From a virus (Duplodnaviria; Caudoviricetes): DNA of 57,822 bases. The stretch lies in the IMG/VR virus record IMGVR_UViG_3300036885_000101, positions 1 through 57,822 of that record; one strand, 5' to 3'. The notes under the pieces are model-generated. The model ran no database searches. It worked only from the letters and a program-made list of their open reading frames with translations, and was not told the DNA's origin. This document shows positions 7,121 through 49,729 of this stretch, piece after piece. How positions within the stretch are numbered: the stretch's first letter is position 1; every line of letters begins with the position of its first letter. The position numbers and the translations under genes were made by a program.

Positions 7121-7677
7121 TTCTTACAATTCTTATTTGCACAATACAAGCGCGAGAAAAGAAGCTCCGTCGATTGCTTGATATTCTAATACCTCAGATT
7201 GATTCGTCCGTTAGCCTTGTCATGAATGCCGATGACAACATGACCGTAGGGGAAAAAAGAAACAGGCTTGTAGGTGGAGCTGCGGGAAAATACGTTTGCT
7301 TTGTCGATGACGATGATTTGGTCAGTAATGATTATGTCAAGAAAATAACCGATGCGATTAAAAGCGGGTATCCTGATTGCGTCGGAATCCAAGGAATAAT
7401 GCTTACAAATTCAAATTGCCCGCGCCGGTTCTTTCATACGATTGAGGTCAATAACTGGTATACGAACGGTTCAGAATATTACCGGACACCAAATCACCTT
7501 AACCCGATAAAAAAAGAAATCGTGCAAAAAGTACAATTCAATTCGTTCAAAAGCTTCTGGGAGGATTTGGAATTCTCTTCATCGATAAAGCACCTATTGA
7601 AAACAGAGGTAATGATTGATGACCCCGTTTATTATTACCTTTACAATATGAAACCGAATGAGGTTATGTTCGCATGA
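7105..7677 (+). CDS. Glycosyltransferase family 2
   Basis: LTILICT..R, GEKRNRL..AAGKYVCFVDDDD, WED; start moved to ATG 7105. Confidence 0.85.
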   Translation: MESDIILTILICTIQAREKKLRRLLDILIPQIDSSVSLVMNADDNMTVGEKRNRLVGGAAGKYVCFVDDDDLVSNDYVKKITDAIKSGYPDCVGIQGIMLTNSNCPRRFFHTIEVNNWYTNGSEYYRTPNHLNPIKKEIVQKVQFNSFKSFWEDLEFSSSIKHLLKTEVMIDDPVYYYLYNMKPNEVMFA

Positions 7678-8765: not shown

Positions 8766-10212
8766 CTGGGAAGATTGCCCCGAAATATATACCGATGGAA
8801 ATAAGGCTCTTGCCTTTGCAAAATCTATTCCCGAAGCCGTCTATCCCGAGAAAACTAACTTTCATTTTTGTTGGCGCGTGCCGCTTGAATTCGGACGGAA
8901 ACAAGTCCTTGCGCTGAAATCGTGCATTACGACGCAAAACCTTGAAAATGTCAATATCATCATGTGGAGCAATGTCGATCTTTCTCGCAATGAGTGGATA
9001 CAACCCATTGCGCGGCACATTGAACTTCGTATCTGGGACCCGGTGAAGGAAGCCGAAGGAACGCCGCTGGAGGGCTTGCGCTTGCTCACAAAGGACGACG
9101 AACATCACTGGCTTGGTGGCGATCTGTTCCGCTTGCTTGTTCTCTACAAATACGGCGGCGTGTATGCGGATCAGGATGTTGTTTTTCTTCGTGACTTTGC
9201 GCCTTTACTTGGTCATGAATTCATGTATCAATGGGGGACGGAAACGCCGACATCGCCACAAAATGCAAAGATAAACGGTGCGGTCATGCGGATGTTCAAG
9301 CAGAGTAAATTGGCAACCGACCTTATAACCACATTGCCAAAAATGCCCGCCGGTTTCGATAGCACAGATTGGAGCGCAACGCTTTATGGAGAAGTTAGAA
9401 AGATAAATAAGAACTGGACAATTTTTCCATGTGCTTTTTTTAATCCTGAGTGGCAGTTGTTTATTAATATGGGTGAGTCTGCCCATCCATTTCGTTGTGG
9501 CATCGAAAGTAGCATGGATTTTGACGGGTGTTTTTCTTGGCATTGGCACAATAAATGGACTTCTCCAATTGAGGAGGGTTCGAAATTTCAACGCCTTGAA
9601 GCTAAAGTCAATGAAAAATACGAACACGAATTCAACTACATGACCGACAAAAATAAACGGTATCTCGGCGGCAACTTCGGCGGTGGTGATCCGGGGACAT
9701 TTTACCCTGCACTATGGCACTGGCTTATTGATACGTATAAGGTAAAAACACTGCTTGATGTCGGATGTGCTGAAGCACATTCTACGCAATGGTTTCAAAC
9801 GCATGGAATAGAGTCTATCGGAATCGACGGACTTGAACAGAATATAGACAACGGCCTTGCCAGAGGTGCAAAGAATCTTTTCTTGTGTGATTTGACAACT
9901 TCATCTTTTAAAACAGCTTCCACTGTTGATATGATTTGGTGCTGTGAGGTTGTTGAACATATAGAAGAAAAATTCATAGGCAATCTTTTTGATACATTCA
10001 AGAATGCAAATATAATCGTCATGACTTTTGGGAAACCGGGACAAACAGGATGGCATCATGTGAATTGCCAACCGAAAGAATATTGGATTGAGAAAATGAA
10101 TGGCAATGGCTTTGACTTCCTTGAAACAGATACAAAAATATCCAGTGAACTTGTTCCAGCGCTTTCTCACTATGGAAAAACAGGACTGATATTCAGAAGG
10201 AAAGAAAAATAA
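8749..10212 (+). CDS. GT32-like (DxD) glycosyltransferase fused to a class I SAM methyltransferase
   Basis: DLFRLLVLYKYGGVYADQD in the N-terminal half; LLDVGCAE and CCEVVEHI in the C-terminal half. Confidence 0.85.
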   Translation: MITGCNWEDCPEIYTDGNKALAFAKSIPEAVYPEKTNFHFCWRVPLEFGRKQVLALKSCITTQNLENVNIIMWSNVDLSRNEWIQPIARHIELRIWDPVKEAEGTPLEGLRLLTKDDEHHWLGGDLFRLLVLYKYGGVYADQDVVFLRDFAPLLGHEFMYQWGTETPTSPQNAKINGAVMRMFKQSKLATDLITTLPKMPAGFDSTDWSATLYGEVRKINKNWTIFPCAFFNPEWQLFINMGESAHPFRCGIESSMDFDGCFSWHWHNKWTSPIEEGSKFQRLEAKVNEKYEHEFNYMTDKNKRYLGGNFGGGDPGTFYPALWHWLIDTYKVKTLLDVGCAEAHSTQWFQTHGIESIGIDGLEQNIDNGLARGAKNLFLCDLTTSSFKTASTVDMIWCCEVVEHIEEKFIGNLFDTFKNANIIVMTFGKPGQTGWHHVNCQPKEYWIEKMNGNGFDFLETDTKISSELVPALSHYGKTGLIFRRKEK

Positions 10213-33894: not shown

Positions 33895-34869
33895 ATGAAG
33901 TATACAAACAAATTCAAATTGCCGCAGTCATTGGTTGACGCGCTGACTAATGACGACTACGATCTTACCAATGCCCCAGCAAACATCATATCGGTAACAA
34001 CCAGCATTGCTCCGGCAAAGCTTAAGACCCTTGAATGGCGGCATTGGGACGCATTAGAGGCTGATGTTTCAGAGCTTCTGTGGCGCATGATGGGAACGGC
34101 ATGCCACTACGTTGTCGAGCTTGCAGCGAAAGGAGAGAGGCTTTCCGAGGAACGCTGGTATCTTGATGTGATTGACTGGACGATTCACACAGCGCCGGAA
34201 GGTGTGAAGGCTCAGGATTGCAAATGGTTCAAGAAGGATCATATTTACCTTTCCGGCAAGATGGATGTTTACGATCACGCGACAAAGAAGGTGGAAGATT
34301 ACAAATTCACGTCGCTATGGTCCTGGATGTTTGATCGGGCGGCAAAGCCTGAACACATCGCGCAGTTGAATATGAACTCCTTTGCAATTCGTCTGCTTGG
34401 TTTTCCGGTTGAGAAGGCAAGTATTGTGATGTTGTTCAAGGATTGGTCGAAGAGCGCCATGCGAAAAGGAGAATACAACGACAAGTTTTCAGGTGAATGC
34501 TTGCTTCCTGTGAACGTCAAGGAAGTTGCGGCACCGATGTGGAACGACGACTTCACAAAAGAGTACATCATGCAGCGCATTAACCAGCACATTGAAGCCA
34601 AAACCAAGTATACCAACGATGACGACATACCGGAATGCACGCCGGAAGAGCGATGGAGCAAGCCGACCAAGTACGCGGTCATGAAGAAAGGTAAGGAGCG
34701 TGCGTTGCGGTTACACGACACGCTTGAACAGGCAGAGATCCATGCTAAAAGCGATCCGGCATTACAAATTGAAGAACGCAAAGGCGGAGATATCAGGTGT
34801 ACCGATTATTGCAGCGCAAATTTTCTATGTTCATATTACAAAAAAGTTTACGGTAACAGCAACAAATAA
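33895..34869 (+). CDS. PD-(D/E)xK (Cas4-like) exonuclease
   Basis: GTACH, LSGKMD..VEDYK, QLN, C-terminal C..YC..C; adjacent to ERF. Confidence 0.85.
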   Translation: MKYTNKFKLPQSLVDALTNDDYDLTNAPANIISVTTSIAPAKLKTLEWRHWDALEADVSELLWRMMGTACHYVVELAAKGERLSEERWYLDVIDWTIHTAPEGVKAQDCKWFKKDHIYLSGKMDVYDHATKKVEDYKFTSLWSWMFDRAAKPEHIAQLNMNSFAIRLLGFPVEKASIVMLFKDWSKSAMRKGEYNDKFSGECLLPVNVKEVAAPMWNDDFTKEYIMQRINQHIEAKTKYTNDDDIPECTPEERWSKPTKYAVMKKGKERALRLHDTLEQAEIHAKSDPALQIEERKGGDIRCTDYCSANFLCSYYKKVYGNSNK

Positions 34870-34898: not shown

Positions 34899-35081
34899 AT
34901 GAAACTTCACGAATCTGCTTTGACAGAAAAACAGATTGCAGCTCTTAAGAAAATGTATGATACTGGTAAGTTTTCTCACAGAGATTTAGCGAGAATGGTT
35001 AATGTGGATAAAAGTCAAATAAGCAGGTATTTTCAAAAGATGAAACCGATTACCACGGAGGATCAATCATGGAAACAGTAA
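34899..35081 (+). CDS. Small HTH DNA-binding protein
   Basis: FSHRDLARMVNVDKSQISR. Confidence 0.75.
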   Translation: MKLHESALTEKQIAALKKMYDTGKFSHRDLARMVNVDKSQISRYFQKMKPITTEDQSWKQ

Positions 35082-35986
35082 CAAAAGTAACAAACGGGAT
35101 ACAGGAAGCCGCAAAGGAGCCGATAGAAGCCGTAGTATCAAAAAAGGTGTTCCCGGTAAAGAAGAAATCCCTGCTTGCAGAAGCAATGGTAAAATGCCAG
35201 AGCCTTATCAATCCGGCAGGAAAGAGCGGGGAGAACAAGTTTGACCACTACAAGTATTCTACTCTTGAGGATTACTGCAATCAGCTTAAGCCGGCGCTAA
35301 CCGCTTCAGAGCTTGCGGTGTACTTCAATCAGGACGAGATTACAGACAAAGGTATCCGGGAAACATCGACAGGCAAGAAGGAATACGTAATCAGGGTGAA
35401 GCTTACCGCGACGATCATGCATAGTTCCGGGGAATGTATGGATGTGGTAGGATACGGGGAAGGCCAGGATCGAGGTGACAAGGCTATCTACAAAGCGATT
35501 ACAGGGTGCAAGAAGTACCTGCTTGCTAATGCGTTCAACATCCCGACGACTGACGACCCGGAAGTAGACTCACATGATGCTGAAGAAAAGTTACCGCCGA
35601 AAGGCCAGAGATTCAAGGACGAACAGGCGGTAGTGTCCAGAGCGTTGGTAGATCAAGAGAAAAAGGCCGCAGAATCTCCTCAGAAGGCCCAGGACGCAGG
35701 CAAACCAGTACCGGGAAGCCAACTGCCAGCCAAGAAGAAAGAACCCTCTGACGAGGACCAGGCAAAGGACGGACTGATCATAACGGCCCAGGTGAAAGCA
35801 TTGCAGAAAAAGCGTACTCAGTTCAAAATACCGGATGCTAAATGGAAAGCATGGCTATTTGCGAAATACGCTATCCTGACAGCGTGGAAGATAAAGCAGG
35901 AATGGTTTGCAGCGATAGATGGAACTGTGACACTTAACCCAGCAGAGATAATCGAATTTGTTACAGCAGATGATGTGGCGCAGTAG
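35069..35986 (+). CDS. erf: ERF-family single-strand annealing protein
   Basis: KSGENKFDHYKY, GEGQDRGDKAIYKAITGCKKYLLANAFNIPTTDDPE. Confidence 0.9.
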   Translation: METVTKVTNGIQEAAKEPIEAVVSKKVFPVKKKSLLAEAMVKCQSLINPAGKSGENKFDHYKYSTLEDYCNQLKPALTASELAVYFNQDEITDKGIRETSTGKKEYVIRVKLTATIMHSSGECMDVVGYGEGQDRGDKAIYKAITGCKKYLLANAFNIPTTDDPEVDSHDAEEKLPPKGQRFKDEQAVVSRALVDQEKKAAESPQKAQDAGKPVPGSQLPAKKKEPSDEDQAKDGLIITAQVKALQKKRTQFKIPDAKWKAWLFAKYAILTAWKIKQEWFAAIDGTVTLNPAEIIEFVTADDVAQ

Positions 35987-35995
35987 AGACATGAG

Positions 35996-36024
35996 TTTAC
36001 ATAATAAAAAAGACGATTTAAAAT
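35996..36024 (+). promoter_or_regulatory. Sigma70 promoter upstream of the cassette array (Pc-like)
   Basis: TTTACA-N17-TAAAAT, about 80 bp before the first GTT core. Confidence 0.65.
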
Positions 36025-36152
36025 GAAAAATAAATTAAACTATATAAATCATAATGATAACAATTGCAGACGACATATTGTAAAACCCGTCTGATGGATA
36101 TTACCTGTTGGCTGCAATGCCCGGTGAACCATGTAAAATAGGAGGTCGTCAA

Positions 36153-36500
36153 ATGATTAATGATAGGGTTTTAAAGTCAAGTGACATTATGCTGCTTGGT
36201 GATATTCTCGTTACAATAAACGGTTCTCAAATTCCTGTTATCGGGTATTCCGGCCAAGTTGTTTCTGATGCTGTCAACGATCATACAAACTTTATCGAAT
36301 GCCGCCGACCTCAAAAAGTAGAGGAGTCACCGGGCACAGTTCCGCCAGTAGGCGCAGCCAACAGCCAAAGTGTGACGGCGCTGAGTGAAATAGTTTGGGA
36401 TTGGCTCACTGAAAATGCTGTCGATGTTATGGTTGACAAGTGTGACGTTAATATGCTAATTCAGCGCCTAAATGCCGGAATATCGGCACTTCACACTTAG
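36153..36500 (+). CDS. Cassette 1 hypothetical protein
   Basis: GGAGG RBS; reads through the attC-like arm. Confidence 0.6.
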   Translation: MINDRVLKSSDIMLLGDILVTINGSQIPVIGYSGQVVSDAVNDHTNFIECRRPQKVEESPGTVPPVGAANSQSVTALSEIVWDWLTENAVDVMVDKCDVNMLIQRLNAGISALHT

Positions 36501-36553
36501 GCGAACGTTGGTTGCAATAGCGGCCAAGGACTTTACAAATAGGAGCGCGGCTT

Positions 36554-36823
36554 ATGAATATAATTTGCGATAAGTGTAAATATGTTTCTGGTTTTTCATC
36601 TGAATTTCCGTGCAATAGATGCGTTGTAATTGCCATTAATTGTTTTGTTCCAAGCAATGCCGCGCTCAATTCTGAGGAGTTGGCCGCTACAGTTCCGGCA
36701 GTAGCCGCAGCCAACAAACAAAGTGACAAAATTAAACCTTGTGGCTGGCAATATTCTTGTGGATACGTTCGGGTCAATAAGGTGTGCAAGGGTCCGACGT
36801 GTAATATATACGATCCGGTTTAA
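36554..36823 (+). CDS. Cassette 2 Cys-rich hypothetical protein
   Basis: AGGAG RBS; CxxC motifs. Confidence 0.6.
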   Translation: MNIICDKCKYVSGFSSEFPCNRCVVIAINCFVPSNAALNSEELAATVPAVAAANKQSDKIKPCGWQYSCGYVRVNKVCKGPTCNIYDPV

Positions 36824-36887
36824 CTTCGCACGTTTGTCAAACGTTGGCTGCAATGCCCGGTGAACCATTTAAACAGGAGGCGCGGGA

Positions 36888-37286
36888 ATGAGAAAGATAC
36901 ATTTGCAAATGGATGGGAATCAGATAGTGGCGACGTGGGACGATTTTGATTGTCTTGCTGTTTCTCCGGCAGGCTTTGGCGACAATATCGGCGAAGCCGT
37001 AAGCGCGTTGATAAACGAAACGGCTTCATATGCACTTAACGGCATCGTATCAAGCATTGAGAACGCAGCACACCTCACAAATAGTAGCCGTATTACAGAG
37101 GCAAGAGGTGAAGACCGCGCCTCTAAATCAGAGGAGTCACCGGGCACAGTTCCCGGAGTACCGGCAGCCAACACGGCCAGCCCGCAATTGCTGGCATTGG
37201 TTGCCCTTATGAAAGTATCGGCTACAGTATCAACGACAGCGGTTTTAAAAGTGATCTACGATGAGTTCCCGCAACTGCGGGCGTAG
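36888..37286 (+). CDS. Cassette 3 hypothetical protein
   Basis: AGGAGG RBS; DGNQIVATWDDF..SPAGFGD. Confidence 0.65.
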   Translation: MRKIHLQMDGNQIVATWDDFDCLAVSPAGFGDNIGEAVSALINETASYALNGIVSSIENAAHLTNSSRITEARGEDRASKSEESPGTVPGVPAANTASPQLLALVALMKVSATVSTTAVLKVIYDEFPQLRA

Positions 37287-37339
37287 GCGAAACGCGTTGT
37301 GCGAAATGCCCGTTTACTTTTTAATTATAGGAGGTGCTT

Positions 37340-37552
37340 GTGCAGTTAGCAATCGACATTCTTAGATCGGAGCTTGAGTCTTACAAGCAGTGTTTGCGCA
37401 CCGAAGGTAAGTATAGCGTGTATCCGGAGTATCGTGGCCCGAACGTGGATTTTGCCCGTAACATAGCTGAGTTGCAGGACGCAATAGCGCACCTCTTAAA
37501 AGCTGTGGAAGTAAACGGTCACATCGCACAACAAATAAATGGTGTTCGCTAA
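37340..37552 (+). CDS. Cassette 4 hypothetical protein
   Basis: AGGAGG before GTG 37340. Confidence 0.55.
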   Translation: MQLAIDILRSELESYKQCLRTEGKYSVYPEYRGPNVDFARNIAELQDAIAHLLKAVEVNGHIAQQINGVR

Positions 37553-37908
37553 CGCACATGCGGAGTACCGCACGTCACTATTTATCGAACGATGGGCGCG
37601 CTGGAATAAGAGATAAGAGAAGACACCCAGGTTTACCTAACAAGGTATTCAATTTTGACTCGCATGCTCTCGCGAGTAGGTTGCTTTATGAAACATTCAC
37701 TTTTTCAGGAATACAGTGTTCGGAATGGCGTAAAACGTCGTCTTTGCGTACCCATAGTGATCGAAGACTCCCACGCGAACTTCGAGGGTCGACGGTGTGT
37801 GAGCTTTAGGGATTGCGCCATTCCCTTTCTTAGCGAGTCGCAAGCTGGCGGGCCTATTGCTCGCAAATTAATACCGACGTTAGGCCGCTTAAAAACAAAG
37901 GAGAAATT

Positions 37909-38187
37909 ATGAAAGTCGTAGCATTGGAGATTAAAAAGCGCGAAAGTTACGATAGTGAATATCCGAATGAAATTGTTGGCGTTGTGCAAATAACCGGCGA
38001 AACGGGTAAAATGGAGGTTCGTCTTCGCCCTAAAACCGTTGCCGAAATTTTCAGAATGTGCAAATCCGATGTTCAAATGGTTGCCAATTACAACGCCAAC
38101 CAAGCGGCTTTGGCTTGTGAAAATGTCGCCGGTACTATCGAACTTCAGGTCGAAAACAACGATCTAAAACAAATCGCGGCGGCCTAA
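37909..38187 (+). CDS. Cassette 6 hypothetical protein
   Basis: AAGGAG RBS; stop codon lies inside the GCCTAAC inverse core, as in classical cassettes. Confidence 0.7.
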   Translation: MKVVALEIKKRESYDSEYPNEIVGVVQITGETGKMEVRLRPKTVAEIFRMCKSDVQMVANYNANQAALACENVAGTIELQVENNDLKQIAAA

Positions 38188-38249
38188 CAACCGCTTCAAT
38201 TCTGACTCGTGGGCGGATACAGGCTACAAAAAATTATAGGAGGCGCTAA

Positions 38250-38426
38250 ATGTTTGAAGAGTTTTGTCGTGTGTGTAAAAACAAACATAAATTTATAATT
38301 TGCGGTAATTGTAAAACAAAAATGGCCCCTCCGCCATATTATGAATTTAGCGCCTCAATTGAGGACGGCAAACCATCCGCAGCGGGACAAGATCCTTTAC
38401 CCGTTAGCGGCGCGAAAACTGAATAG
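38250..38426 (+). CDS. 58-aa CxxC protein nested inside the attC-like loop of cassette 6
   Basis: AGGAGG RBS; MFEEFCRVCKNKHKFIICGNCK (not in the ORF track). Confidence 0.55.
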   Translation: MFEEFCRVCKNKHKFIICGNCKTKMAPPPYYEFSASIEDGKPSAAGQDPLPVSGAKTE

Positions 38427-38486
38427 CTTATCACTCGCAAATTAAGCGGACGTTAGGGTGCGGCAAAGACTAAATAGGAGCGCGGC

Positions 38487-38753
38487 ATGATAAACGCAGA
38501 ACAAGGCATAGAGCGGTTTGAAGCACATTTTATTAATTGTGATGGAATAAACTCCATAAACGCGGATCTTATGAAAGAGGCAATTGACGCAATAAGAGCC
38601 GCGCTCCAAGAGAATAATAATACCGCTGTAGCTTTGCTCGATGAGATTGAAAACGCCCTCGGCGATTGCAAGGACAACTTAGACTTTTCTTGCCGAGTCA
38701 CGGAAATTTTACAACGGAGGCACGATGAAAAACAAAATCAAAAAATTGATTGA
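38487..38753 (+). CDS. Cassette 7 protein a
   Basis: AGGAG RBS. Confidence 0.6.
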   Translation: MINAEQGIERFEAHFINCDGINSINADLMKEAIDAIRAALQENNNTAVALLDEIENALGDCKDNLDFSCRVTEILQRRHDEKQNQKID

Positions 38754-39192
38754 ATCATTTTTAGACAACGAAATGGAAACAGACGAATTAGTTGATAACA
38801 TAGATGCAATTTGTCGCGCCTCCAACACAGAAATGAATATAAATAATTATTTGGCGGCACGTCGGTTGACAATAGAATCAAGCCTTGCCGCCGAAATACT
38901 CGCCGGAAATACGGTCAAGCAGCAATGCGAACAGACGGCGTTAGCAGAGATTTCGGCGATGGAACAAACATTTTTTAAGAGCGCCGCCAGCGAGCGGGAA
39001 ATTTCCCTTTCCGGGTGTGCATCGAGTGGTGCGTGCGGTTATACCGGATATCCAAGAATGTGCTATTCTACTAGTCCATGCGAGCATAAGATTGCGCTGA
39101 AAGCCGCAATCAACAATGGCATCAATCTTGACTCGCCACGTTTGCCAATCGGTAGCGGCGAAAATAAGAGTCTTTTGGGTACGCAGCATTAA
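38725..39192 (+). CDS. Cassette 7 protein b
   Basis: GGAGG RBS; runs into the attC-like arm. Confidence 0.6.
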   Translation: MKNKIKKLIESFLDNEMETDELVDNIDAICRASNTEMNINNYLAARRLTIESSLAAEILAGNTVKQQCEQTALAEISAMEQTFFKSAASEREISLSGCASSGACGYTGYPRMCYSTSPCEHKIALKAAINNGINLDSPRLPIGSGENKSLLGTQH

Positions 39193-39323
39193 GTCGGTTA
39201 CTGTCTATCAATGCGGTTGTAGGCTCGCAAATTATGCCTACGTTAGCGCATTTTTGGCTGCGGGAAATAAAACAAGATCGGGCGGCATAGGCCCGGCGTC
39301 ATGCCGGGCGAGGAGAATATAAA

Positions 39324-39629
39324 ATGAAACTTATTTGCACATTGTCTAAACCCGCATACGTTCAAAAAACAATGAAAGAATTATGCGAAAGAAAAGATAT
39401 TTCTTTGGTTCAAATTTTGGATAATTCTGAAGTAAAAGCGGAGTCACCGGGCACAGTTCCCGGAGTACCGGCAGCCAACACGGCCAGCCTAAAATTGCCG
39501 AGCACAGAAGATGTTTGGAATTATGTATATAATCATCATGAATTTTGCGAAGATTTTGCAAGAGAAAACGAAGCTCGTGATATATCAAAACTTGTTTACG
39601 AATTTATATATCGGCAACTTCAGGCGTAG
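39324..39629 (+). CDS. Cassette 8 hypothetical protein
   Basis: AGGAG RBS; shares ESPGTVPGVPAANTAS with cassette 3. Confidence 0.6.
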   Translation: MKLICTLSKPAYVQKTMKELCERKDISLVQILDNSEVKAESPGTVPGVPAANTASLKLPSTEDVWNYVYNHHEFCEDFARENEARDISKLVYEFIYRQLQA

Positions 39630-39689
39630 CCGGAACATTGCACGCAATAGGCCGCGAACCATATTGTAAACGCGCCAAGGAGAAAACAA

Positions 39690-39986
39690 ATGACAGTTTT
39701 TAAAGCCATAAAAAGCATTTGCTCTATGCGAATAAATGATGTGTCGGGCAATCGTTTACGGGTAAAGTATCGTTGGGTATGTGCAAAGAAAAAGTGTTCT
39801 TGTTTGTGTGCTGAATCAAATTGCGAAATAGTAAAAAGAATTGGCGCGTTAAAAAATGCGGAGTCGCTGCCTACAGTTCGCCCGAAGCGGGCCGCGCAAC
39901 AACGCAAGGAAGCAATATTACGCTTTTGTGGAAACTGTCAACGCAATGATGATAGGTCAAGCGAAAAGGTAAATTATCATAGATAA
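39690..39986 (+). CDS. Cassette 9 Cys-rich hypothetical protein
   Basis: AAGGAG RBS. Confidence 0.55.
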   Translation: MTVFKAIKSICSMRINDVSGNRLRVKYRWVCAKKKCSCLCAESNCEIVKRIGALKNAESLPTVRPKRAAQQRKEAILRFCGNCQRNDDRSSEKVNYHR

Positions 39987-40075
39987 CTTAATATTAGCGT
40001 GGCCGCATATGCGGTCGTATCACTCGCTGCTTAAGCGGGCGTTAGGCCGCAGCGGGGAACTAAATAGGAGGCGTG

Positions 40076-40456
40076 ATGAAACTTGATGTAAACAAAATAC
40101 TGGCGTTGCGGGCGATTTATAGTAGAGAAACAGGATGCCCAACATCGTGCCCTGACGGGAAGTTATTTACAATTCAATACACAACATGGCTCGAAGCTCG
40201 CGCCTCCAATACAGAACAGAATAATTCCGCTGTAGCTTTGCTTGCTGATGTTTATAGGCACATAGAAACGGGTGAGATTAAAATGGGTTGTTTGCGCGGT
40301 TTGAAACATGACATTGCAGTCTGGGCGCAATCCCCGCTGCCGCCTAACAATGGCATCAATCTTGACTCGCCACGTTTGCCAACAGTAAATCCGTCAAGTG
40401 AAATTGACGTGGGTGGAGTTGGTATTGGCCCTCGCGGTTGTGGCGACATAGACTAA
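40076..40456 (+). CDS. Cassette 10 hypothetical protein
   Basis: AGGAGG RBS; shares NNGINLDSPRLP with cassette 7b. Confidence 0.6.
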   Translation: MKLDVNKILALRAIYSRETGCPTSCPDGKLFTIQYTTWLEARASNTEQNNSAVALLADVYRHIETGEIKMGCLRGLKHDIAVWAQSPLPPNNGINLDSPRLPTVNPSSEIDVGGVGIGPRGCGDID

Positions 40457-40639
40457 TAATGCGGTTGCGCCTATGAACACAACGGAACTTTTATTTGAAT
40501 ACGGAATAGCTATCGTTTTTCTTATTGTCTGCATTTTTATAATACGAAGCGTAACCGTATTGTATGCGTTTCAGCGAATTAACTCAACGTTAATCACTTT
40601 TGCAATATGGATGATTATGTGTGTAAAAGAAAAAACTAA

Positions 40640-41047
40640 ATGTATAAAATAAAATACCGTGGCATATCTAAAGGCGGTAAGATCACGCTTGATCCAGGCC
40701 ACTTGGAAGCTTATAATGCAGCAGTGAGACGCTTAGAGGGTCAAAAGATAGAGGTAACGATATGCAAGCGCCAGAAGGCCAATACGCGCAGCGAGCAAAA
40801 GTATTTCTACGCTGTGATCGTGAAGATGATAGCCGATGAAATAGGTGAGAGCGAGACGCGAGCTTTTGAGATTATACAGGCGCAGTTTTTTGAATATGAG
40901 GATGCTAACGGACGGAAGTACATACGGTCAACGGCGCTTGGTGAATGGACAACGGTGGAGTGGGAAAGTCGGATGCAGGATATCCGGCAGTGGGCGCAGG
41001 ACTATTTAAACTTAACGATTCCAACGCCGAACGAAACAGACTATTGA
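40640..41047 (+). CDS. NinB/Orf-like protein
   Basis: RSEQKYFYAVIV..RSTAL..TVEW..I..WA..L.IPTPNE. Confidence 0.65.
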   Translation: MYKIKYRGISKGGKITLDPGHLEAYNAAVRRLEGQKIEVTICKRQKANTRSEQKYFYAVIVKMIADEIGESETRAFEIIQAQFFEYEDANGRKYIRSTALGEWTTVEWESRMQDIRQWAQDYLNLTIPTPNETDY

Positions 41048-41072
41048 CAGCGTGTTGAAATAGTGGTATATT
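41044..41072 (+). promoter_or_regulatory. Sigma70 promoter of the replication operon
   Basis: TTGACA-N17-TATATT. Confidence 0.8.
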
Positions 41073-41156
41073 ATTAAGCGGATCGTGGCACCTTGAGCAA
41101 GTGTCTAAAAGGATGTGTGCGGTGAAAACGAAAATACTCCCTGAAAAGGGATTACA

Positions 41157-41219
41157 AGAGCTGGTGTCGAATAAGGCATACCGCACAATGCCGCTCATCG
41201 ACACTGGCTCTTTTTATTT
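41157..41219 (+). terminator. Leader terminator/attenuator upstream of the replication initiator
   Basis: AGAGCTGGTGTCGA pairs with TCGACACTGGCTCT (two G-U pairs), followed by a T-run. Confidence 0.6.
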
Positions 41220-41232
41220 GTAGGAGGGGTAT

Positions 41233-41949
41233 ATGGATAGAAAATTTGAAGGTGTTTATTTTTCTTTTGAACTTTGGTTAGATAAGAGTATTCCAGCATT
41301 AGAAAAAATGGTTTTTGTCGAAATACGATCTCTTGATAATAATAAAGGTTGTTTTGCAGGTAACGATCATTTTGCAGAAATGTTTGGTGTTACCGAGAGA
41401 CAAGTACAGCGATATATTGCCTCTTTAAAAAACCGTGGGTATATTACTCAAGAATCTTTTGATGGAAGAAAAAGGGTATTGAGAGTATCTGAGGGAATGA
41501 GGGGTGACAAAAATGTCATATCTGATACGACATCTATGTCATTACAGACTAGAAGTAATTGTCGTGACATCTCTTCTATTATAGAGAAAGAACATAAAGA
41601 AAAGAATAAGGACAATTCTAAATACATTCCTTTAAGTGAATATCTAAAGGAGCGATTAATAAAAGAATCACCGGATGCTATCATAAAAGAGAGTCAAGTA
41701 AAAGATTGGTGTAACGATTTTAGATTAATGGTTGAGCAGGACAAGCGAACAGACCAACAGATAAGAGAAAAAATTGACGCGGTTTTTTCCGATTCTTTTT
41801 GGTGTCGGACTATTCAGTCAGCGTCGAAATTACGCTTGCGATGGAACGAGGGAAAATTGTCTCACTTAAATGTTGTGCAAATCGGTCACGACGATCCACC
41901 GGAAGAATTTGTTGATTCACCTAACGCCTACGACATGCCGCAACGATGA
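41233..41949 (+). CDS. Replication initiator (N-terminal winged HTH)
   Basis: GCFAGNDHFAEMFGVTERQVQRYIASLKNRGYI; C-terminal FW..IQSASKLR; precedes DnaB. Confidence 0.85.
   Translation: MDRKFEGVYFSFELWLDKSIPALEKMVFVEIRSLDNNKGCFAGNDHFAEMFGVTERQVQRYIASLKNRGYITQESFDGRKRVLRVSEGMRGDKNVISDTTSMSLQTRSNCRDISSIIEKEHKEKNKDNSKYIPLSEYLKERLIKESPDAIIKESQVKDWCNDFRLMVEQDKRTDQQIREKIDAVFSDSFWCRTIQSASKLRLRWNEGKLSHLNVVQIGHDDPPEEFVDSPNAYDMPQR
41506..41615. other. Putative replication origin: three 23-bp-spaced iterons plus an A-rich tract
   Basis: GACAAAAATGTC (41506), GACATCTATGTC (41529), GAAGTAATTGTC (41552) inside the initiator gene. Confidence 0.55.
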
Positions 41950-43334
41950 ACGAACATTATGATAAGATTCCACCGCAGGCTCTAGACGTGGAGCGCACAG
42001 TCCTTGGGTCAATGATGATCGACCGAGAGGCGGCGAACACGGCAATTGACATGCTTAGTGAAGGGTGTTTCTACGCAACACAGAACCAACGTGTATTCGT
42101 TGCTATGCGAAACCTTTATAATAAAAGCACGCCGATTGACCTGATAACGGTATGCCATGAGTTAAAAGATAAAAAGTGGTTGGAATCAGTAGGAGCAGAA
42201 CCGTACCTTTCTGAACTAAACAACAGTGTGGCTACAGCGGCGAATATCAAACATCATTGTCAAATATTGGACAATAAAAGGATACTCCGGGAGTTGATTT
42301 CAAACGCCGCCACAATAACCACAGACGCGGTTGAGGCTGAAGATCCAATAGCATGTCTTGAGCGGTCACAAAATAAAATCTATTCTATTGGTAATGTCTA
42401 CGAGGCAAAAAACACGCATATTCATGGCGCTTTGGTCAAATTCACAGAGGATATGTCGAGCAGAAAGTATGGTGAGCTGTCTGGACTTTCAACAGGGTTT
42501 GCGGACATCGACGACCTTACCGGGGGATTTCAGCGGAAAGACCTGATACTTATTGCTGGCAGACCTAGCAGTGGAAAGACAGCGTTAGAGTGCGCTATTA
42601 TTTTACGCATGGCGCGTGCAGGGATACCTGTAGGGGCCTTTTCAATGGAGATGGACGAGCGGTCTATTGCGTCACGCCTTGTGTGCCTGGACGCACGGAT
42701 AAACAGCGTGCATATCCGTAAGGCGATTTTGACCACAGAAGAAAAGGCTAAAATCAGTCTTGCTGTGAACAGCATTCATACCTTGCCGATTCACATAGAC
42801 GATTCGTTTCACCTGAATGTGTCGAAGGCCCGGAGCCGGTTGCGCAGGATGATATCAAATTACGGCATTCAAGCGTGTTTCTTTGACCACTGGCACCTGA
42901 TGGAGCCTGACCACGACATGAAGTACATGAAAGGTGCGGAGCTGATAAACGAGCGTGCGCGGCGTTTAAAGGGCCTTGCGAAGGACTTGAATATACCCAT
43001 CATTGCTCTTGCACAACTATCGCGGGAATCAGACAGGCGTGTTGTGAAGAGTCATAGACCTATTCTGAGCGATTTGAGAGAGGGTGGCGAGCAGGACGCG
43101 GATTTAGTCATGTTCACGCACCGAGAAAGCGAGTACCCGCCGATATTTAAAGGGAAAACGGCCGAGGCGATGGCTGAAGCACGCCAGAAGTGGGAAGCGG
43201 AGTATCTTGGCAAGGCAGAGATCATTGTAGCTAAACAGCGCAACGGGCCTCAAGGTAAGATAGTTTTAGGGTTTGAAAAGCAGTATGCAAGGTATTTTGA
43301 TGACAATGACACCAAGGCGACTGATGAATGGTGA
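41946..43334 (+). CDS. dnaB: Replicative DNA helicase
   Basis: IPPQALDVE, AGRPSSGKT Walker A, FSMEM, LAQLSR, SDLRE, KQRNGP. Confidence 0.96.
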   Translation: MNEHYDKIPPQALDVERTVLGSMMIDREAANTAIDMLSEGCFYATQNQRVFVAMRNLYNKSTPIDLITVCHELKDKKWLESVGAEPYLSELNNSVATAANIKHHCQILDNKRILRELISNAATITTDAVEAEDPIACLERSQNKIYSIGNVYEAKNTHIHGALVKFTEDMSSRKYGELSGLSTGFADIDDLTGGFQRKDLILIAGRPSSGKTALECAIILRMARAGIPVGAFSMEMDERSIASRLVCLDARINSVHIRKAILTTEEKAKISLAVNSIHTLPIHIDDSFHLNVSKARSRLRRMISNYGIQACFFDHWHLMEPDHDMKYMKGAELINERARRLKGLAKDLNIPIIALAQLSRESDRRVVKSHRPILSDLREGGEQDADLVMFTHRESEYPPIFKGKTAEAMAEARQKWEAEYLGKAEIIVAKQRNGPQGKIVLGFEKQYARYFDDNDTKATDEW

Positions 43335-49058: not shown

Positions 49059-49490
49059 ATGAATCAGGTTACTCTTTTTGGATATACCGGCAAGGACATT
49101 GAGATCCGCCAGACCAATAGTGGAGACACAGTAATTAACTTTAGCTTGAGCACTGAGGAGCGCTGGACCGACAAGCAAGGCCAAGTCCAGAAGAAAACTG
49201 AGTGGCATAACTTGGTGCAGTTCGGTAAAGGTGCCGATGTGACCGCGAAGTACGTGACCAAGGGTAGCCAGATCCTTGTTACCGGGAAGCTTCAGACGCG
49301 ATCATGGGACGACAAGGACGGCAATAAACGCCAGAAAACCGAGATAGTTGTGCAGAGAGTCGAGTTTGGCAGGCTGAAGGACCGTCAAGAAGGTCAGCAA
49401 GGTGAACCGTACCCACAGGCACCTGCCTTACAGCAGCGGCGCCGGGAACCAGGCCAGGACGACGACCCAGGCCCACAGGACGACTTCTGA
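49059..49490 (+). CDS. ssb: Single-stranded DNA-binding protein
   Basis: MNQVTLFG, KTEWHNLV, GKLQTRSW, acidic DDF tail. Confidence 0.95.
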   Translation: MNQVTLFGYTGKDIEIRQTNSGDTVINFSLSTEERWTDKQGQVQKKTEWHNLVQFGKGADVTAKYVTKGSQILVTGKLQTRSWDDKDGNKRQKTEIVVQRVEFGRLKDRQEGQQGEPYPQAPALQQRRREPGQDDDPGPQDDF

Positions 49491-49729
49491 TGATTTACCC
49501 TAAAGACGGCACGATACAAAAAGGCGATGAGGTAAAAGAGTCGTCGAGGTATCGGAAGGATATTAAGATTTGGCGTGAATGCTCCACGGGGAGCAATTAT
49601 TGTTTTTGACGAATTGAATGCAAAGATATTTCCGGGGGAAACGCTGGCTGTTATTGATGAAATGGGAATAAATTCTTTGGAAATAAAGCGTTTTAGTTTT
49701 GATAGTTATGTTTCATATGCGGTTTTATC

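Follow-up and report, generated by a model that had tools for sequence, protein, structure and literature searches.

Helices beyond the attC-like hairpin in a putative integrase-less array of integron-type gene cassettes from a peat-associated phage

The origin of integron cassettes and the control of single-stranded attC folding are long-standing open questions. A cassette that entered its array as a circle, through a crossover at G|TT, carries a textbook footprint, namely that its start pairs with its own R'' box. Among phages the closest described systems are clusters of attC sites lacking integrases (CALINs): Qi et al. (2023, PMC9892861) describe such clusters in virulent phages, including Tetrasphaera phage TJE1, as predicted by IntegronFinder, and report that IntI1 recombined 5 of the 6 phage attC sites tested. 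Here we describe a 4.4-kb run of small open reading frames (ORFs) in the early operon of a tailed phage, which separates the Erf and exonuclease genes from the replication genes and comprises approximately ten co-oriented units (W1 to W10). The phage is represented by the complete virus record IMGVR_UViG_3300036885_000101 (57,822 bp, with direct terminal repeats); the whole of this record is referred to as the window, or as G000 where it is set beside other phage records. Judged from its sequence, the region is best read as an integrase-less array of integron-type mobile gene cassettes in which the pairing of the R box appears to be newly extended outward.

The likeness to integrons and CALINs takes in several features. 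The ORFs are small, co-oriented and mostly promoterless, the boundaries are of the G|TT type and no integrase lies nearby. Only AAC/GTT(G) is conserved within boxes whose sequences otherwise covary, and each cassette start is complementary to its own R''. Moreover, L''/L' stems are found, with a bulged base in one class of units (type B), and the same cassette can be found in other contexts. The differences are equally clear. In known cassettes only the end of the ORF and the 5' untranslated region (UTR) lie beyond the R box, whereas here pairing goes on past it through two further helices (P2 and P3) and conserved loops. The other class of junctions (type A) has 1 x 4 nt spacers, the attC-like parts extend to 158-179 nt (277 nt in one that has an ORF nested inside it) and code for linkers or C-terminal domains, and cargo, arms and tails are shuffled separately.

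Each cassette boundary reads ..AC|GTTGnnn, and a helix that we term P1 joins the start to the nnnCAAC box of the same cassette, 150-700 nt further downstream. Proceeding away from the attC-like hairpin, there follow an internal loop, P2 (8-12 bp), an A/T-rich loop and P3 (8-13 bp), the last of these at the ribosome site. In type A cassettes the 5' side consists of (A/C)AC|GTTGnnn(n), which is the 5' strand of P1, a 4-nt loop (GCAA or GAAA), P2, an A/T-rich loop (ACCAT...AAATTATAG) and a G+C-rich P3 of 8-13 nt that usually holds the Shine-Dalgarno (SD) sequence or the start codon, with the ORF coming next. The 3' side consists of P3', an A-rich loop ending in GGAG, P2', then CATC or CAGTTC with a hairpin of 4-5 bp, and finally nnnCAAC. 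The attC-like part lies 3' of CAAC and is made up of an A, stem L'', a loop of 30-140 nt, L', a 4-nt spacer (RMAC) and the next GTTG. The cassette ORF usually runs through the 3' arm, where it codes for a low-complexity linker, into the attC-like part. Type B units (W5-W7 and W10) have the boxes GTTAGGC/GCCTAAC, a 4 x 4 spacer and one extra base in L'', and the loops of two of their attC-like sites each hold a whole small ORF.

Pairing beyond the attC-like hairpin was confirmed. The initial annotation of this DNA had proposed that entire cassettes are self-complementary, with covariation extending well past the attC-like hairpin, and this was borne out by both permutation and alignment tests. 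The arm pairs that it quoted are present as P2 in cassettes 1 to 4 and 9 (Table 1): cassettes 1 and 3 share the same pair, and the pairs of cassettes 4 and 9 form 12 of 13 and 9 of 10 base pairs respectively, with one C.T in each. The unpaired motifs that it saw recurring could also be found, with ACCAT past P2, GGAG ahead of P2', and CAGTTC accompanied by a hairpin of 4-5 bp whose stem covaries (CGCC/GGCG, CGGC/GCCG, CCGG/CCGG and GCGG/CCGC). A strict detector, defined as a perfect 7-bp GTT../..AAC helix plus a perfect second helix of at least 7 bp, returned four units on the + strand of the window, every one of them inside the array. On the - strand it returned three, comprising two strand-symmetric units of the same four and one site outside the array, compared with 0-2 matches (mean 0.5) in 20 shuffled windows scanned on both strands. 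The z scores of the RNA minimum free energy were -4.55, -3.61 and -2.81 for cassettes 1, 2 and 3. When 12 cassettes were circularised and folded against 20 shuffles each, as the annotation had suggested, they folded better than the shuffles (z of -1.1 to -7.7 with DNA parameters, 9/12 at or below -2.9); the first seven bases were fully paired to the cassette's own R'' in eight, partly in two and not in two (W2 and W9). The structure is present in 6 of the 10 window cassettes and in 14 of the 16 listed for a distant phage, G003, whose array has these 16 cassette starts within a 7-kb stretch (locus L003). In the other four (W5-W8) the arms are weak or hybrid, and their inner energies, from -10.6 to -20.7, stay at background level.

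Relatives were gathered by a pattern scan with the 3' arm, which yielded three true loci out of five among viral contigs and five short loci among metagenome contigs. A curated set of 24 units was drawn from the window (6), G003 (14), a further record, G002 (3), and locus L013 (1). The units analysed (24, or 25 in the register table) were chosen because they pair and the P2 register was set to maximise pairing; RNAduplex recovered P1, P2 and P3 in 24/24 of the curated units, at -30 to -57 kcal/mol. Once P1 was taken out, cognate arms paired at a mean of -34.5 kcal/mol compared with -18.5 +/- 5.5 for swapped arms, the cognate arm was the best partner in 19/24 units, and 0/10000 permutations reached the observed sum. 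The register table of 25 units contains 23 distinct combinations of P1 and P2. Within it, 180 of the 184 P2 cells are Watson-Crick and none is G.T, and all four pair types occur at 7 of the 8 positions. RNAalifold found P1 and P2 on an unguided MAFFT alignment of 12 units, with two-sided changes at 9/13 pairs. On this alignment a pair counter gave 87.8% of cells paired versus 66.0 +/- 2.6, and the covariation score was 0.534 versus 0.161 (0/500 shuffles), with slid registers scoring 0.04-0.18. Structure outside attC is strongly selected here, with 23 different arm pairs each complementary to its own partner.

Of the three helices, P1 is already known, and P2 and P3 are new. The innermost helix, between the start and the cassette's own R'', is the footprint expected of circle-inserted cassettes. 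The annotation's statement that classical cassettes confine structure to attC found support. In a control on three cassettes of the published attC cluster of TJE1 we find 7-8 bp of own pairing, and the P2/P3 extension is missing in 3/3, the inner arms pairing no better than shuffles (-16.6 vs -15.9, -16.9 vs -13.5 and -15.0 vs -18.3). No extension resembling P2/P3 was found described in the attC literature, as judged from titles and the openings of abstracts in a coverage that is not exhaustive. The annotation also considered a distinct element class. We prefer an integron-type identity, since the type B junctions align with TJE1 attC sites and integrase-less attC clusters of phages are already published. 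Its other suggestion, that the pairing might hint at how cassettes are created from ssDNA or RNA, is speculative.

Several features of the junctions support this identity. In the 14 G003 cassettes the start and its own R'' form 5-7 of 7 Watson-Crick pairs (mean 6.6), compared with 2-6 of 7 (mean 4.2) between R'' and the start of the next cassette, and W3, W4, W6 and W10 of the window follow the same pattern. GTT/AAC is invariant in 22-23 of the 23 distinct units. The type B boxes are exactly GCCTAAC/GTTAGGC, with a bulged base, and the type A boxes (AGCCAAC/GTTGGCT and GCACAAC/GTTGTGC) show 1-2 deviations from the degenerate consensus RYYYAAC/GTTRRRY; R' boxes are degenerate in W4/W5 (GAT) and W9 (ATT). 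Moreover, the L stems covary in the 22 junctions examined, and type B arms align with attC arms of TJE1 at 65% and 63% column identity. As in a CALIN, approximately ten junctions lie in a row and the integrase domain PF00589 is absent from the complete 57.8-kb genome; indeed, neither tyrosine (PF00589) nor serine (PF00239) recombinases are present in any of the four records studied. Compact attC-like elements (n=8, 65-116 nt) have fold z scores of -1.6 to -4.0 and long ones (n=7, 135-149 nt) of -3.0 to +1.2. The annotation's picture of a circle with stems on both sides and two loops therefore stands where the elements are compact and the attC-like stem is clear, and fails to convince in the long protein-coding ones, where this stem is weak, including cassettes 2 and 3 (z of -0.68 and -0.05). 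RNAalifold found no pairs across the eight compact elements because MAFFT left their L' arms out of register.

At the level of assembled sequence, whole cassettes and modules were shown to recur in other genomic settings, bounded in the same way. G000 shares only five backbone proteins with the G001 and G003 records, at 36-52% identity, and the sole long nucleotide match between them is W2, at 85.5% identity over 359 nt; the other two matches are 48-58 nt of 3' arm. The homology of W2 extends from ..GAAC|GTTGG to ..CAAAC|GTTG. A search with the W2 protein found no relatives beyond these two records. Parts of the array were found in 20 public runs, of which 18 are labelled peat metagenome and seven hold at least half of the sampled words; the carrier of the array is a virulent-looking phage found in peat metagenomes. 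Four of these runs were compared contig by contig, with interpretation limited to those parts of 35000-42000 that have contig cover. Contigs leave the window exactly at 36107 (two runs, with other attC-like ends preceding), at 36500/36507 (two runs) and at 39638 (two runs), and one contig joins the attC-like end of W1 to the start of W3, with W2 absent. Elsewhere the arms are kept and the cargo is replaced, as seen from loose ends at 36545, 36884 and 37113 and from joints that skip the cargo (36528/36545 to 36675-36677, 36884 to 37113 and 39685 to 39860, the last in three runs). One contig joins the front half of W1 to the tail of W8 (36366 to 39492). In one run contig depth was 100-400 over arm and cassette sequence (36170-36871 and 39446-39679) and 1-5 on flanking phage genes; therefore the same arms must also be carried by other genomes that are more abundant in the sample.

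Arms, cargo and tails are also exchanged separately from one another; for instance, two G003 cassettes have P1 and P2 in common and differ in P3 and cargo. Another G003 cassette carries an MT-A70 DNA methyltransferase with a 37-residue tail that is coded by the 3' arm and the attC-like part. The arm begins directly past the complete domain and therefore the structural element looks as if it was appended to a captured gene. An IS200-type Y1 transposase is likewise cargo within the loop of one G003 cassette, whose arms still pair over 724 nt. Arms of 45-60 nt would suit Erf-type annealing, and therefore homologous exchange probably adds to any site-specific moves. Methyltransferases in phage cassettes were noted too by Qi et al. 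(2023, PMC9892861). By eye, a TnpB-like ORF can be seen further along the L003 locus. The copies of W2 in G000 and G003 are only 77.5% identical as proteins; the attC-like stems are conserved and the middle is approximately 45% identical with its cysteine pattern kept, as in a small zinc-binding or disulphide domain.

We favour the reading in which the array is integron-type and the extension has a role at the DNA level; we would put this at about an even chance, and a role in mRNA may hold as well. We infer that single-stranded DNA is what the extension acts on. Once a circle has been excised as a single strand, its attC stem would become a long rod (loop with cargo, P3, P2, R box, L box, loop) that would stabilise the R box despite a long and protein-coding attC loop. 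Such a rod may be needed because the attC loops are long and coding and their stems weak, as in W2 and W3. In a single-stranded array, the P3-P2-P1 rod of a cassette would stack on its own L hairpin and clamp both ends together, so that the two G|TT points are precisely where the strands coming from cassette i-1 and leading to cassette i+1 would exit. A single pair of strand exchanges at these points would set free a closed circle whose rod and attC stem form one long helix, with the R box in the middle. The clamp should favour, or else control, the excision and insertion of cassettes by a recombinase of the IntI type, which reads structure and which we assume the host to supply, since the phage has no gene for one. 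That most ribosome sites would be masked by the rod in mRNA we take as a secondary consequence. Recognition of this sort has parallels. IS200/IS605 ends, REP/RAYT and the forked hairpin of CTX phage attP(+), which is used by XerCD, are short local hairpins read by dedicated or Xer enzymes. As in these elements, recognition here would be by folded single-stranded DNA, with the ends of a unit brought together in one strand; they differ in that no such enzyme is common to the phages studied here, the Y1 transposase being found in 1/4 records.

Base pairing itself leans towards DNA. The helices are almost purely Watson-Crick, and an RNA helix under selection should admit G.U pairs; the 19 isolated non-Watson-Crick cells in strong helices comprise 2 G.T, 5 A.C and 12 others, the slight excess of A.C would correspond to G.T on the bottom strand, the one that integrases use, and this leaves seven informative cells, too few for certainty. 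From reading of the folds, P3 lies outside the SD and start codon in at least two units (G003 cassettes at L003-rc 4916 and 6178). Besides the small number of wobble cells, other points weigh against a site-specific, DNA-level system. Type A junctions have the 1 x 4 nt spacer and lack a consistent extrahelical base. Classical attC sites are approximately 55-141 nt long and several of the parts found here are longer; moreover, several long ones encode genuine stretches of protein and are no more stable when folded than their shuffles. Neither an integrase nor a host nor an attI was found, and a scan of 185,579 species genomes with the type B left-arm pattern gave 49 single matches, close to the chance estimate, and no host integron. 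A scan of the same genomes with a 3'-arm pattern of 22 specified bases gave no matches. The metagenomic evidence consists of assembled contigs rather than reads and cannot show excision or circles, and the many breakpoints at which cargo is swapped and arms are kept are what homologous recombination would be expected to leave. The rod in a single-stranded array competes with the classical attC fold and could equally inhibit recombination or protect the array. Lastly, in roughly 19-20 of the 24 units P3 shares bases with the SD or start codon, again by reading of the folds, much as an RNA switch would.

The last point is the main argument for a device acting in mRNA, which we consider rather less likely. 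Here the array would be one polycistronic early transcript in which each 5' UTR is paired to the stretch coding for the linker, 150-700 nt further on, so that the ribosome site is hidden. Initiation of translation would be limited to nascent RNA, or would have to await the opening of the rod by an upstream ribosome or a helicase, resulting in a short early burst, coupling or protection of the mRNA. Consistent with this, a single promoter-like site lies upstream and none within, so that the array looks like one transcript, W1-W3 fold as RNA 2.8-4.6 standard deviations better than shuffles, and the 3' arms lie in low-complexity linker codons that are able to absorb nucleotide constraint. The arm of the MT-A70 cassette, which begins just after the complete domain, fits as well. 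However, G.U pairs are not enriched (2 G.T against 5 A.C, with no G.T in the P2 cells), at least two units keep P3 with SD and AUG outside it, and P1 and the GTTG/CAAC core are explained by recombination and not by RNA. Rods as stable as those calculated would nearly silence the genes, and there is no family match in Rfam 15 at gathering score over the whole window. In RNA phages such as MS2, long-distance RNA interactions close ribosome sites. The likeness lies in a ribosome site paired to a coding stretch far downstream, whereas the helices here are without wobble, share the recombination core and travel with mobile DNA cassettes. If the rod does act only on mRNA, it would still be an unusual array-wide gating of early phage genes.

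The PeSL promoter-terminator motifs of T4-type phages (see also Arbiol et al. 2010) offer another precedent. A PeSL consists of a local terminator stem-loop plus an early promoter, at which exchange occurs by homologous recombination (Comeau et al. 2014, PMC4122927). In both cases a plastic part of the phage genome holds small, variable early genes bordered by short conserved motifs, and these motifs mark where exchange occurs. On this view the conserved arms, 45-60 nt in length, and the junctions would be shared sites for cargo swaps between co-infecting phages, carried out by Erf and the exonuclease, and the complementarity of the arms would have no function of its own. Replacement of cargo between kept arms in other metagenomes, the pair of G003 cassettes with common P1-P2, the hybrid W8, and the Erf and exonuclease genes adjoining the array all fit with this, as does the precedent of PeSL-mediated exchange. 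We nevertheless regard it as improbable, given that it leaves unexplained why 23 different arm pairs each match their own partner, why complementarity of P3 is kept despite changes of cargo, and why an exact GTT boundary stands beside non-homologous upstream DNA at 36107. The arms also differ from PeSLs in that they are without promoter- or terminator-like sites, pair over hundreds of bases and end in attC-like junctions. Invertible segments, or terminal inverted repeats of miniature transposons, are very improbable: inverted repeats of 20-60 nt do flank segments of 150-700 bp, but the arms differ in nearly every unit so that no single sequence-reading transposase or invertase could serve, tyrosine and serine recombinases are missing and the IS200-type transposase occurs in one record only, as loop cargo, 12/12 contig joints are skips with none strand-changing, and no target duplications were seen.

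Returning to the integron-type reading with a DNA-level role, we tentatively propose, as something less than an even prospect, that phages found in peat metagenomes share a distinct kind of "self-synapsing" cassette. The three-helix rod would hold both crossover points together in single-stranded DNA, and circles in the form of rods or dumbbells would excise and insert with little help, via a host IntI or an unrecognised enzyme. The nested arrangement of arm, cargo and tail would then record how cassettes are built around captured genes, for example the MT-A70 domain with its arm-coded tail. The system may help with both the question of cassette origin and that of attC folding, and the pairing may bear on how cassettes move or are switched on. 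Whole cassettes, arms, cargo and tails can each be seen here to move on their own from one genome to another. Since arms with and without P2/P3 share one array, they represent a ready test set for the effect of pairing past the R box. The array also adds to the few reported integron-type arrays of phages without an integrase.

Nearly all long ORFs of G000 lie on the + strand, and its annotated genes include those for the major head protein, portal, terminase and DnaB helicase. The coordinates of the array and its surroundings are collected in Table 1. A sigma-70-like promoter just upstream of W1 likely drives the whole promoterless array: sigma-70 promoter-like sites were found in none of the cassette 5' arms, and no terminator-like sites were found between cassettes. 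None of ten cassette ORFs examined had a Pfam match above cut-off or a PHROG match, blastn in distant mode of 35900-41100 against 50,697 phage records gave no match, and no relatives of the Erf protein were found among viral contigs.

Table 1. Coordinates of the cassettes, neighbouring genes and cassettes of a related phage. Window positions refer to G000; pairs of ranges give the two strands of a helix.
Feature	Position	Strand	Details
Exonuclease gene	33895-34869
Erf-type annealing protein gene	35069-35986
Sigma-70-like promoter	35996-36024	+	TTTACA-17-TAAAAT; just 5' of W1; 10/12 matches
Cassette array W1-W10	36107-40470	+
W1	36107-36506	+	P1 36107-36114/36355-36362; P2 36118-36127/36327-36336 (TGCCCGGTGA/TCACCGGGCA); P3 36140-36148/36307-36313; hairpin 36343-36354; ORF 36153-36500; attC-like part 36356-36513, L'' 36367-36375, L' 36491-36498
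W2	36507-36842	+	P1 36507-36514/36708-36715 (one T.G); P2 36518-36527/36680-36689 (TAGCGGCCAA/TTGGCCGCTA); P3 36542-36551/36659-36667; hairpin 36696-36707; ORF 36554-36823
W3	36843-37295	+	P1 36843-36850/37165-37172; P2 36854-36863/37137-37146 (as W1); P3 36876-36885/37115-37124; hairpin 37153-37164; ORF 36888-37286
W4	37296-37591	+	P1 37296-37303/37525-37532; P2 37307-37319/37509-37521 (TGCCCGTTTACTT/AAGTAAACGGTCA); P3 37330-37337/37489-37495; ORF ~37334-37552; compact 73-nt attC-like element 37526-37598 with GCGG-AGTA-CCGC hairpin and degenerate R' (GAT)
W5	37592-37878	+	degenerate unit; type B attC-like site ~37635-37885; loop ORF 37688-37912 with own ribosome site, overlapping next start codon (ATGA)
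W6	37879-38451	+	10-bp own pairing GTTAGGCCGC 37879-37888/GCGGCCTAAC 38179-38188; without P2/P3; ORF 37909-38187; type B attC-like site 38182-38458, L'' GCTT-C-AATT (one extra base), L' AATTAAGC; 58-aa loop ORF 38250-38426 with own ribosome site
W7	38452-39241	+	ORFs 38487-38753 and 38725-39192; weak arms; type B attC-like site ~39105-39248
W8	39242-39636	+	hybrid; 3' arm 39437-39498 94% identical to that of W3, 5' arm unmatched; ORF 39324-39629
W9	39637-40040	+	degenerate R' ATTGCAC 39637-39643/CGCGCAAC 39893-39900; P2 39648-39657/39864-39873 (TAGGCCGCGA/TCGCTGCCTA); hairpin 39880-39892; ORF 39690-39986
W10	40041-40470	+	P1 40041-40047/40342-40348; P2 40049-40058/40331-40340, with 1x1 C.C between; ORF 40073-40456; final attC-like site truncated (array end)
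Replication initiator gene	41233-41949
IS200-type Y1 transposase gene, complete (G003)	L003:3874-4332 (G003 49318-49668)	-	PF01797, E 4.5e-35
MT-A70 DNA methyltransferase cassette (G003)	L003:8328-8972	-	complete domain, residues 6-177 of 214

Three readings of particular motifs as known sites were rejected. A sigma-70 promoter composed of P1 (-35) and the A/T loop (-10) would have a variable spacing of 19-24 nt, and the promoter scan found no site there. A T7-type promoter reading of "TATAGG" was given up because a scan of large ORFs revealed no RNA polymerase domain and conservation is lacking in the upstream part. A nick site for an HUH enzyme in the A/T loop is unsupported, the Y1 transposase being present in only one of the four records. 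Just past the array and before the replication genes, a strong sigma-70-like promoter (TTGACA-17-TATATT with TG) was observed at 41044-41072.

Some minor motifs were also observed within the cassettes. Tiny hairpins with a covarying 4-bp stem and an invariant AGTA loop occur in W1, W2 and W3 (the hairpins of Table 1), at 37559-37570 and at 39460-39471, and likewise in a compact attC-like element at L003:7076-7148 (- strand). Those in 3' arms translate as P-x-V-x-A; others belong to compact attC-like loops that are not translated. In a variant (GCCCGAAGCGGGC and GGGCGAAGCGCCC) the loop is of the GAA type. Several cassette proteins have similar C-termini (..QLRA, ..RQLQA, ..QLRAGA and ..AQLRAVR) coded by the L' side of the attC-like part, at 37250-37290 and 39590-39630 in the window and at approximately 7150-7190 and 10040-10083 of the reverse complement of L003.

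Lastly, the type B pattern caught by chance a near-identical 40-nt repeat, GTRTGGTTAACAATTAACTCAATAATGACTCGAATTCCCC, at eight loci (L026, L032, L052, L055, L056, L060, L063 and L072). Its carriers are seven cyanobacterial contigs (Microcoleus, Tychonema, Oscillatoriales and Microcoleaceae) and one metagenome-assembled genome labelled Actinomycetota.

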